Source: Rickettsiales bacterium (lineage in GTDB: Bacteria; Pseudomonadota; Alphaproteobacteria; Rickettsiales; UBA1997). Taken from it: 64,000 nt of DNA. Under the pieces are notes generated by a model that was not told where the DNA came from, did not search any database, and saw nothing but the letters and a program-made list of their open reading frames with translations. This document shows, in pieces, positions 60,450 to 63,400 of this stretch. Numbering within the stretch: position 1 is the stretch's first letter; each line of letters opens with the position of its first letter. Location of the stretch: positions 4,233 to 68,232 of the forward strand of contig JAGAUJ010000020.1 of the NCBI GenBank assembly GCA_017620845.1. The letters are read 5' to 3'. The position numbers were made by a program, and so were the translations under genes.

Positions 60450-63400
60450 CTACCAACTAATCTTAACATATCCATTTCCACTTCTTTGTCCATTTGATCC
60501 ACTGCAGGTAAATTTTGAGGTATTACAATAACCGGAACCACCGCCGGCACCACCAGTCATAGAAGAGGCACCACCACCGTAATAGCCACCGCCACCACCA
60601 AAGCAATAGTGACCTTCAGAACAATCTGCTCCTTTACCAAAAGAACCGCTAGCTTCACCCCCTATTCCATCTCCACCAGCTTCTTGAGTACCACCTTTAC
60701 CACCATTGCCACTACTACCATCATCACCATTATTATTACCGCCACCACCACTACCAGATCCACAATATTTATTAAGATCAAAGTTGGCACCATTACCGCC
60801 GCCACCGCCAGCTACAAGTAATACAGCAGTTTTGTTATTTTCCAGAGAAGATAGCACCCCATCATTAGCAGCCACATGCGTCGCTCCTCCACCACTATGG
60901 TATGTAGTACCATCTCTATCACCACATCTACCTCCACCATTAAAAGCATTAGTTAAAGACCCTTTTTGACTATATTGTCCAACAGCTACATAATAAGTAG
61001 TTCCATTAATATAATTGCCACTATTCATAACACCTTTTGTATAACCACCTTTACCACCATAACTGCCTCCACCTTGCGCCCCCCACAACTCAAATGTAAT
61101 ACTTTTACCAGCATCTTTTAATCCATATGGAGCACAAAAAGTATCTATTGTGCCAGTGTATTCAAATGTCATACTTCCACTTCCAACCTTCCAAGTTCCA
61201 TTATTACATATAAGAGTTCCGCTTGCCGAAACATTAGAATATGTATGCTCTATACTAAAACTACTTCCATTACTCACATTAGCACCAACACCCTTATATG
61301 TATCATTTGTTATCCAATCATCACACCACCCATCTACACCAACACTTCCATTTAGCCCAACACCTAAATCTCTTGGTATATAACTTTTATGGCAAAAAGT
61401 ATGATTTGTTGGAACACTAACAGTAAAAGTTTGTCCATCTGATGCAACTCTATATCCACCTATTGCACATATTTTTAATGTTCCATTATCTGGATCAGAA
61501 ATATTAAATGTTTCTGAATTACAAGTTATACTATCACCAATCTTTACATATTTACTCACAGATATCGTTCCGTTTTTATTCGCATCATCATATAGTCTTG
61601 GACTGTAATAATCTACTTTTATTGCACACCCACCTCTCGCTGTCCATGTTCCATTAACGCATTCATAATAATGCCCACCTTTATCAATATTACTATTATT
61701 ACCGTCTAATATTATATTATTTTTATCAATTTCTTGATAACCACTAGCACAACTAGCTTCTATTTTAGTTCCATTTGTTACAAAATATTGACTTGTATTA
61801 TACAACATAGTTGTCGTTAATATGGATATATCTTTTGATAGAGTAGTTGTGTTCATTAACATGCCAGGTTGATCATCTACATATAATATATTGTTATCAT
61901 TTTCCCAAAACACACTTCCTATCGTCATTGCTGGAAGACCTTGACAAGAATTATTTGTTTTAGTCATTTCCCAATTACCATTTGAATTACAAGTTAATGT
62001 AAAATTACTTGTTTGATCTGTATATAACCACTTCCAATAGATGCTATTAAAATATCTGTATTGTGTAGATTTATTATTTAAAGATACAATTGATGAACCG
62101 GTTTTTAAATAAGCAGTATAACCAGTAGTATTTTTTATTGCATTTAAATCACAAGAGGCTGTTTTTGTTTTCCAATAAGATTTTCCACTATTTATATTTG
62201 TAGTATCAAGAGTACAAATATAATGTCTATGTTCATTTGTAGTATCATCTAACACTACTGCAATATTATCACCACAAGTTGCAATATCATTATTATTAAC
62301 AACAAAATTATTATTTGTACTAAGTGCCGTATAAGAAGAAGCATCTAATGAATTATTATGACAGTATGCCATTGTATATATACCGGTTAGATTATTATCA
62401 CTTCCAAATGTCATATCATACAATTGATCACTTACCTTATTATTATTTTTATCAAATACTGCAGACATATCATCACATCCAGTAAACACACACATATTAT
62501 TTTCAGTTCCTTCTTTTACCTCCCACTCTCCATTCTCACCGCATCTTATTATTCTTTTATTTGACGTAGAATAACCAGTATCGCAAGTATTTATTGTAAT
62601 AATGGTACCAAATTCATATATTTTTCCTTTATTACTATCTAATGTTATATCAATAATACTATCTTCTTTAAATGTGTTACAATTATCATCTGCACACCAT
62701 ACTATTGTTTTTACTAATTCATTACCTAATATATCAGTTGTAAGATCGTCAACTGAACATGTTTTTGCTATACACCCACCTCTTGCAGTCCATGTTCCAT
62801 TAACACATTCGTAATGGTGCCCACCCTTATCAATATCATTATTACCATCTAATATTATATTATTTTTGTCAATCTCTTGATAACCACTGGTACAACTAGC
62901 TTCTATTTTAGTTCCATTTGTTACAAAATATTGACTTGTATTAGATAATATATTTGTTGTTAATGTGGATGTATCACTTGATAAAAGTAATGTATTCATT
63001 AACATACCTGGCTGATTTTCTACATATAATATATTGTTATCATTTTCCCAAAATATACTTCCTGTTGTCATTGCTGGAAGACCTTGACAAGAATTATTTG
63101 TTTTAGTCATTTCCCAATTGCCATTTGAATTACATTTTAACATGAAATTACTGTATTCACTTGTGGCAACACCACTACTAACACCCCATGTGTTTGCCAT
63201 ATATCTTTTTTGAAATGTATTTGTATCTAATGTTGTAGCGTTACTTGTAGACGCTGTAGATACAGCCTGCACTGAGTCTTTCGCTAACCACACAGTATAT
63301 CCCTTATTTTTTATTTCATTTAAATCACAAGAAGCAAAATTATATTTCCAATAACTATTTCCATTGTTTATATTTGTCGTATCTTCAATACAAATAAACT

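Follow-up and report, generated by a model that had tools for sequence, protein, structure and literature searches.

The 64-kb stretch of bacterial DNA analyzed here (64,000 nucleotides, referred to as the window) ends in a gene whose product terminates in about 240 amino acids (aa) of glycine-rich sequence, and the locus raises the question of whether this terminus belongs to the family that includes the ligand-binding domain of the metazoan receptor kinases ALK and LTK and of what such a domain would do on a bacterial protein. A preliminary description of the DNA had placed a C-terminal glycine-rich block at 60453-61172. The block was present, though encoded on the minus strand: the plus-strand translation of this interval has stops throughout, and translation of the reverse complement gave an open frame of 1,182 codons (60450-63998, with the stop at 60450-60452) whose C terminus reads ...FEYTGTIDTFCAPYG...GNGYVKISW* and contains all of the motifs quoted in that description. 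Profile searches and structure prediction confirmed the terminus as a genuine folded domain of the ALK/LTK family PF12810. The protein that carries it is, on balance, probably a modular type IV pilin-like adhesin with a stalk resembling complement control protein (CCP) modules and a hypervariable, receptor-binding tip made of TNF-like and glycine-rich parts. The features of the gene and its immediate flank are as follows.

60450-64000, minus strand: putative large surface-protein gene, the C-terminal 1,182 codons and stop; the frame is open and its 5' end lies past the window edge.
60453-61166, minus strand: TG-type tip domain (TNF-like beta strands and glycine-rich lattice), 238 aa (aa 945-1182), predicted from Pfam, AlphaFold2, and Foldseek.
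60459-61097, minus strand: match to PF12810 in Pfam (aa 968-1180 of the window frame).
61167-61616, minus strand: linker domain, ~150 aa (aa 795-944), conserved beside the tip in the clade, of uncertain fold.
61617-62765, minus strand: repeat B (aa 412-794), Sushi/CCP-like cysteine modules in series, with 62% identity to repeat A.
62766-63944, minus strand: repeat A (aa 19-411), with 94% nucleotide identity to the second repeat of the L054 allele.
60450-60552, minus strand: constant 3' end, the last ~33 codons and stop, where identity to other alleles resumes (3' recombination boundary).
62915, minus strand: polymorphic base, C in the window and A in L001 (GGA [Gly] versus an in-frame TGA).
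57985-60342, minus strand: ftsK (FtsK domains), directly downstream, a conserved flank by which the locus can be recognized in other strains.

Compared to Pfam, the terminus matched ALK_LTK_GRD (PF12810) with 62.8 bits (cutoff, 24.5; E = 6.4e-17) over positions 11 to 240 of the 243 in the profile, nearly the whole model, and the allele of a conspecific strain on contig L054 scored 68.5 bits against the same family. With a profile built from 90 relatives from which the query was left out, the real 240 aa scored 200.1 bits, and the best of 300 composition-preserving shuffles scored -23.5 bits. A reciprocal profile of 91 sequences (the query and its 90 relatives), searched against PDB sequences, reached Caenorhabditis elegans SCD-2 (6.2e-10), human ALK (4.4e-9), and LTK (5.6e-4); a single-sequence PDB search with the tip domain returned no match, ALK and LTK included. 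The assignment made in the preliminary description to a glycine-rich family including ALK and LTK was thus borne out by the Pfam match and by the reach of the profile.

The AlphaFold2 model of the last 282 aa, calculated with a 91-sequence alignment, had a mean predicted local distance difference test score (pLDDT) of 93, a predicted template modeling score of 0.92, about ten beta strands, and no segment below a pLDDT of 50; the disorder that would have spoken for mere glycine richness was not seen. The glycine-rich stretches were modeled at pLDDT >90 as neither helix nor strand. When this model was compared to PDB with Foldseek, the sole significant matches were TG domains of ALK and LTK (7MZY, 7NX1, 7NWZ, and 7NX0; E, 2e-7 to 3e-6; probability, 1.0; ~21% identity). 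The global superposition gave a template modeling (TM) score of just 0.40 to 0.43. The final beta strand of the domain coincides exactly with the end of the protein. No kinase or EGF domain was found in the Pfam scan of the window protein and the L054 allele, and, as judged from its sequence, the protein is not a member of the ALK/LTK receptor tyrosine kinase family.

The guanine-plus-cytosine (GC) content of the domain region was 42.8%, compared with 26.5% for the whole window. Glycine accounted for 71 of the 238 domain codons (29.8%), and the non-glycine codons of the domain had a GC content of 29.7%, matching the 29.5% of the rest of the gene, so the local rise is due to glycine codons, as had been suggested before. 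Silent tip-domain cassettes nearby were considered and rejected, as the profile search found only a single copy of the domain in the window.

The N-terminal part of the gene was reconstructed from other assemblies. A second assembly, L001, comes from the same genome, with which it differs at 1 position in 17,965 nt, and lengthens the frame by 197 codons, the frame being still open where the contig ends; contigs break inside the gene presumably because of its intragenic repeats. The complete gene was present in L054, a 135.8-kb contig from a close strain with flanks 96 to 99% identical, where it encodes 1,655 aa; by comparison with this copy, the part of the window gene beyond the 5' edge would amount to ~470 codons. 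The L054 protein begins with MTNNNINNRDYSANNG, followed across the predicted cleavage site by FSLLELSIVLTVIGVLIIGIIRGY, a class III (prepilin) signal in which FSLLE follows the glycine. The protein, with ...NNG and then FSLLELSIVLTVIGVLIIGII around this site, passed NCBIfam TIGR02532 (IV_pilin_GFxxxE) with 20.5 bits against a cutoff of 16.3. Next comes a conserved pilin-like module of ~210 aa, and residues 260 to 450 are 100% identical to the overlapping pre-repeat part of the window/L001 protein. The order in L054 is prepilin signal, pilin-like module, Sushi/CCP-like modules, linker, and glycine-rich tip. The same N terminus was found in two distant full-length relatives, P0125 (1,756 aa; collinear; 58% identity) and P0138 (970 aa). 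Among the 280 relatives that were fetched, 19 start with GFTLxE prepilin signals, and P0043 and P0089 pass both N_methyl and PF12810 in Pfam.

With no anchor or secretion signal at its C terminus, which is formed by the final strand of the domain, the protein must be attached through its N terminus. No family was matched by the window protein in NCBIfam, and a single-sequence PDB search with the pilin-like N-terminal module of P0125 gave no match. A Joint Genome Institute (JGI) metagenome scan with the pilin-like N terminus returned just an unrelated high-GC pseudopilin-like gene sharing the N-terminal helix. A contig from a related metagenome-assembled genome (MAG) encodes a T2SSF/PilC-type platform protein and LpxI. 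Genes for type IV pili and type II secretion systems are scattered across Rickettsiales (Castelli et al. 2024, PMC10847448). Fusions of pilin signals to PF12810 are on record: Datasets S1 and S2 of Raynaud et al. (2021, PMC8179133) contain the architectures IPR012902-PF12810 (2 proteins) and IPR012902-PF12810 x3 (1 protein), and the same authors list one PilY1 with PF12810 and describe adhesion mediated by modules grafted onto pilins.

Two tandem repeats of ~390 aa, 62% identical (E = 2e-154), make up most of the window frame upstream of the linker. They contain C..GY..C..W..C motifs, with six C..W..C, four of which are preceded by C..GY, and the cysteine content of the window protein is 3.9%. 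The earlier characterization of the protein as giant, cysteine rich, and repeat containing is partly right: it contains repeats and is cysteine patterned, and at 1,655 aa it is large rather than giant. Sushi (PF00084; cutoff, 20.7 bits) passed in the relatives P0125 (31.7 bits) and P0025 (29.9 bits) and scored 16.4 bits in the L054 allele. For a model of repeat B and the linker, the top 10 Foldseek matches in PDB were all multi-CCP proteins (E, 3.7e-6 to 6e-4), including beta2-glycoprotein I, factor H CCP1-4, Crry, SPICE, and CD46. These matches and motifs suggest, with moderate confidence, that the stalk consists of Sushi/CCP-like disulfide modules. The linker, which contains the motifs VDYYSPRLYDD...CHKSYIPRDLG...GVDGWC...LICNNGTWK, was modeled at pLDDT 43 to 75 and shows 80% identity between the alleles of the window and L054. 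The ~390-aa repeat unit is confined to a small clade, with just six homologues found, the named ones of which are "Rickettsiales bacterium" MAGs.

Three alleles were found at the same locus directly upstream of ftsK: that of the window (100% identical in L053) and two others, from L054 (P0001) and L050 (P0122).

L054 allele: ftsK 96% identical to the window at the nucleotide level, tip protein 68% identical to the window.
L050 allele: ftsK 97.9% identical to the window at the nucleotide level, tip protein 62% identical to the window and 64% to L054.

Nucleotide identity (blastn) resumes at 60552 against L054 (96% through ftsK) and at 60556 against L050 (97.9%); the window and L054 do not differ in the last 32 aa, and everything downstream is identical or nearly so. 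Synonymous divergence (dS) in the tip was 0.58 to 0.90, which is 5 to 7 times that in ftsK (0.12) and points to alleles that were imported or long maintained. The ratio of nonsynonymous to synonymous divergence (omega) was 0.37 to 0.64 in the tip versus 0.10 in ftsK. In an alignment of eight sequences (the window copy, the L054 allele, and six relatives), 64 columns were invariant, and the glycine motifs GAQGGG, GGYTKG, YNGGG, GGGATH, VAGGGGG, FGxGG, GGGGYYGGG, and GGGSGYC were conserved in all; the segments between them are indel rich and differ in sequence and length. Repeat A of the window corresponds to the second repeat of L054, at the nucleotide identity listed above, which shows that the modules are shuffled. 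As far as we found, allelic hypervariability at a fixed locus has no description in the literature for bacterial members of the family.

The window copy is intact. In L001, the A at position 62915, which is the sole mismatch, turns a glycine GGA into an in-frame TGA, and the gene call is split in two (558 and 681 aa); in L050, an in-frame TGA (1898-1930) lies at a different codon, where relatives have leucine. Recoding of TGA was rejected as an explanation: 4 of the 44 window open reading frames (ORFs) end in TGA, and the residue lost differs between the two independent variants (Gly in L001, most likely Leu in L050). A partial domain gene, P0280, of a related "Rickettsiales bacterium" MAG (L049, 3-1547) lies beside Peptidase_M20 and AA_kinase genes and not beside ftsK; genomes of the clade may hold more than one tip-domain gene.

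These observations are best accommodated by the pilin-like adhesin proposed at the outset, and the candidate adhesin or receptor-binding role raised in the preliminary description was retained. By homology with L054, the class III signal and N-terminal pilin module would place the protein within a type IV filament or at its tip, and the Sushi/CCP-like stalk and linker would keep the C-terminal TG domain at a distance from the cell. The conserved glycine motifs would build a rigid scaffold, with the variable segments between them forming a binding surface that would engage a receptor on a host cell or another cell, and strains would swap divergent stalk and tip alleles by recombination. Its assembly into a pilus, its exposure at the surface, its binding to a receptor, and the kind of receptor bound are inferred from these features. 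The allele pattern is one that would be expected for a specificity-determining surface module, by analogy with phage tail-fiber tips. A pilin-anchored, disulfide-patterned surface protein also argues for at least an extracellular phase of the organism.

Several results weigh against this interpretation. Every contig with the window allele ends within the gene, short of the N terminus of that copy, and its pilin anchor is therefore carried over from the sequence of the conspecific allele, in which Pfam N_methyl scored 19.8 bits, under the cutoff of 21.2. No pilus-assembly gene, prepilin peptidase, or other ORF with a pilin motif was found within the 64-kb window. At 1,655 aa, the protein is about twice the length of the 860-residue pilin that was the most extreme multidomain case in the published survey, and an extension of ~1,400 aa would have to traverse the outer-membrane secretin. 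Within the stalk, Sushi in the window copy scored 20.0 bits against the cutoff of 20.7, and the CCP assignment uses a moderate-confidence model (pLDDT 70; 11 sequences). The global superposition of the tip on ALK and LTK is loose (root mean square deviation [rmsd], 9 to 11 Å). Omega is below 1, so positive selection on the whole domain was not demonstrated; in-frame TGAs in two assemblies indicate that the gene can be lost and that loss-of-function variants circulate; and the literature offers no binding partner for any bacterial member.

Some of these points would suit a different role for the N terminus, in which the class III signal serves just export or inner-membrane anchoring via a type II secretion-like or pseudopilus system. 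The protein would then be an envelope fibril, a secreted protein, or a coat component instead of a pilus-borne adhesin, with a tip that is structural, antifreeze-like, matrix binding, or self-associating. Such a role would agree with the window being free of pilus machinery, with the size of the protein, which is very big as pilins go, with a weak match of P0125 to the pseudopilin GspH, and with the many relatives that are giant multicopy surface proteins without pilin signals. However, hypervariability is concentrated in the distal modules and the pilin module is 100% conserved, a pattern that fits a specificity determinant better, and the glycine-rich module is also found in phage tail-gene clusters; we consider the export or anchoring role unlikely, though it is the strongest of the rivals to the pilin-like adhesin.

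A second alternative, a eukaryote-derived, ALK/LTK-like ligand-binding module acquired from a host and imitating, or serving as a decoy for, one of the host's ligands or receptors, depends on where the domain family occurs. An exhaustive phmmer scan of 1.84 billion representatives, with clusters at 50% identity, recovered relatives of the domain in 1,686 clusters at E ≤ 1e-3, of which 417 reached E ≤ 1e-10. Bacterial relatives extended down to E = 1e-50 with 43 to 62% identity; many are 1,000 to 7,000 aa long with up to nine copies of the domain, and the named ones include "Bacilli bacterium" MAG proteins annotated as InlB B-repeat proteins. In a scan of GTDB species representatives, loci were found in gut Bacilli, Tenericutes, Bacteroidales (including the cultured Segatella paludivivens), Saccharibacteria, Clostridia, Myxococcota, and Planktophila. 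Carriers thus belong to many phyla, with pilin, Sushi, and InlB B-repeat sequences among the fusion partners.

Among predicted viral structures (BFVD), 25 matches were significant, the best with TM scores of 0.60 to 0.65 and rmsd of 3 to 4 Å; they included proteins of gut siphoviruses, cyanophages, Caulobacter phage CcrBL10, a Xanthomonas phage ("putative tail fiber"), and Tetraselmis virus 1. On a 155-kb viral contig (L055), a homologue lies near genes matching tail-fiber and tail-protein families. Several of the phage homologues among the BFVD matches bear the UniProt name "receptor protein-tyrosine kinase," which looks like a misleading annotation transferred from the name of the Pfam domain, because at least one related phage gene sits in a tail-gene cluster (L055). 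The cryo-electron microscopy structure of cyanophage Pam3 gp24 contains distal domains of TNF-like and glycine-rich type in a tail fiber that resemble C. elegans ALK, and its authors propose that this tip recognizes a host receptor (PMC9608196).

As judged from these searches and models, the TNF-like plus glycine-rich module is mainly bacterial and viral, so the term "eukaryote-like" used in the preliminary description is not apt: the single sequence finds no ALK or LTK, the clusters span many bacterial phyla, and phage folds are closer. Nor is a ligand mimic supported, the nearest relatives being bacterial. The statement that bacterial members are essentially uncharacterized fits the literature, in which no functional study of any bacterial PF12810 member was found, yet pilin-PF12810 fusions were already in a published dataset. 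The shared Pfam family, the Sushi/CCP modules, which are known best from metazoan proteins, and the low-GC, ankyrin-rich genome would all be in keeping with a host origin. Set against these are the low identity (~21%) and TM scores to ALK and LTK, the better superposition of viral proteins, the closest relatives at 43 to 62% identity, all bacterial, and search ranks that suggest a placement deep among bacterial and phage sequences. The protein also has no EGF-like module, transmembrane segment, or kinase, and the domain is fused to a prokaryote-specific prepilin signal. A host-derived module is accordingly very unlikely.

The phage matches also raise the possibility that the gene is left over from a receptor-binding protein of a prophage or tailocin, a reading for which the best structural matches and the viral homologue near tail genes would speak. 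The window contains, amid housekeeping genes, two adjacent phage-derived genes (25434-26918, minus strand), which encode DUF5131 and an ORF6N/Rha-like regulator. They are 34 kb distant, however; the neighbors of the tip-domain gene are ftsK, cysS, and other housekeeping genes with synteny conserved in three strains, and the L054 copy starts with a prepilin signal and pilin module, not a tail-fiber N terminus. A prophage origin was rejected on this gene context and is, if anything, less probable still than a host-derived module. Finally, mere compositional glycine richness (a low-complexity or disordered stretch), despite the glycine content of 29.8% and a large bias term in the profile search, has practically no chance of being correct, having been ruled out by the profile, shuffle, and structure tests (a Pfam match over nearly the entire profile, 200 bits versus at most -23.5 bits for shuffled sequence, a pLDDT of 93 with nothing below 50) and by the 64 invariant columns in eight clade sequences.

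A broader proposal goes beyond the pilin-like adhesin. The module may be a general prokaryotic and viral receptor-binding tip, borne on tail fibers in phages and on pilins or giant surface proteins in bacteria, the rumen alleles of which set the host (e.g., a ciliate) or partner cell, and from such an adhesin module the metazoan ALK/LTK domain may have descended. We regard this combined proposal as speculative and rather improbable; if it were true, hypervariable alleles would set the attachment target of the pilus as gp38-type tips set phage host range.

Apart from the tip-domain gene, the window encodes ordinary housekeeping genes and two ankyrin proteins.

36184-38742, plus strand: ankyrin-repeat protein, 852 aa, almost all repeats (Ank_2, 306.8 bits; a 90%-identity relative has 885 aa).
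11887-12372, plus strand: second ankyrin protein, 161 aa.

Lineage-specific homologues are labeled "Rickettsiales bacterium," and the placement of the lineage uses the named relatives of the ~390-aa repeat. Window proteins recur on metagenome contigs labeled XIEF21; MAG titles with RGIG labels ("Sheep_Rumen" and "Roe_deer_Rumen") belong to the Bacilli homologues, not to the window organism. We take both the XIEF21 and RGIG labels to stem from a ruminant gastrointestinal MAG study. Host association is plausible, with which the low GC content, the ankyrin proteins, and the "Rickettsiales bacterium" relatives fit. Rickettsiales MAGs from the rumen were noted by Castelli et al. (2024, PMC10847448).

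Other features of the region were observed in passing. In L054 (11445-13300), genes for an AAA_21/SMC_N-like ATPase and RloB lie between cysS and an RNHCP gene, where the window has a short spacer (57376-57437); this two-gene insertion looks like a strain-variable, defense-like element. Possible defense genes in the window encode a 750-aa KAP-family P-loop NTPase (43083-45335, plus strand) and a 364-aa protein with HSDR_N and PD-(D/E)XK nuclease-like domains (21211-22305, plus strand). A 1,137-aa triple fusion of an MFS transporter, an acyltransferase, and an AMP-binding enzyme is encoded at 17500-20913 (minus strand), a layout that resembles a lysophospholipid transporter fused to an acyl-ACP synthetase. 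No Pfam family was matched at E ≤ 1e-3 by the ORFs at 38916-40784 (plus strand, 622 aa), 30129-30899 (minus strand, 256 aa), 49028-49831 (plus strand, 267 aa), and 55243-55878 (plus strand, 211 aa). L001 and L002 have both the 267-aa and the 211-aa ORF in matching positions, and L054 has the 267-aa one. No tRNA gene and no Rfam family at the gathering threshold was found within the 64 kb, and exact-protein look-ups with ftsK (GTG start), the ORF at 30129-30899, and P0003 gave no match.

The domain family, modular pilins, and the fusion of pilin to PF12810 are already on record; new here are the CCP-like stalk and the lineage in which a pilin-PF12810 protein is found. The locus yields a testable hypothesis for bacterial PF12810, that of a receptor-binding tip shown on a type IV filament, and its natural allelic series within one species, with scaffold motifs conserved and segments variable, is suited to work on binding and specificity. 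It also supplies a candidate factor for host attachment in a little-studied low-GC lineage that occurs in ruminant gut metagenomes and has "Rickettsiales bacterium" MAGs as its closest named relatives. Because intragenic repeats break assemblies at the gene, annotation pipelines meet fragments alone. For the ALK/LTK ligand-binding domain, the locus offers a microbial context, in which the metazoan domain would count as a side branch within a large family of bacterial and phage modules and not as its reference type.

Compared with known systems, the tip shares PF12810 with the TG supradomain of ALK and LTK (7N00, 7NWZ, 7NX1, and 7MZY; SCD-2, 7LIR). The family profile aligns to ALK residues ~75 to 300 of the crystallized fragment, and the motif order is the same (the F.YTG lead-in, then GA.GGG, NGGG, GGGAT, VAGGGGG, and GGGGGYYGGG). 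Unlike ALK and LTK, the window protein is without an EGF-like module, transmembrane helix, or kinase, is not a receptor for ALKAL cytokines, is predicted to be fused to a prokaryotic prepilin signal and CCP-like modules, and varies strongly between strains. The CCP strings of beta2-glycoprotein I and factor H have four-Cys and Trp motifs that are also present in the window repeats, which differ in their bacterial origin and in the non-CCP segments of the ~390-aa unit.

Modular pilins, such as Streptococcus sanguinis PilB (vWA) and PilC (lectin) and CofB of enterotoxigenic Escherichia coli (PMC8179133), combine a class III signal, a pilin module, and grafted modules, as in L054. The present protein differs from those surveyed in its length (1,655 aa versus a maximum of 860 aa), its CCP-like stalk, and its source, a low-GC relative of "Rickettsiales bacterium" MAGs, and its incorporation into a pilus is a prediction from sequence. 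Gut "Bacilli bacterium" giant proteins are the nearest relatives outside the clade (43 to 47% identity; E to 1e-50), with as many as 9 domain copies and lengths reaching ~7,000 aa; they differ in having monoderm hosts, tandem copies, and Flg_new/InlB B-repeats instead of CCP modules, and most are without a pilin signal. In Pam3 gp24 and in gp38 of Salmonella phage S16, a polyglycine-rich adhesin tip, the domain has a distal position in the protein, as here. Phage tips and the window tip share a layout in which conserved glycine motifs form the scaffold and the segments separating them vary (PMC9608196), and predicted phage proteins are the best fold matches of the window tip; unlike the phage tips, the window tip would be borne on a cellular pilin-like protein encoded at a chromosomal housekeeping locus and not on a virion fiber.

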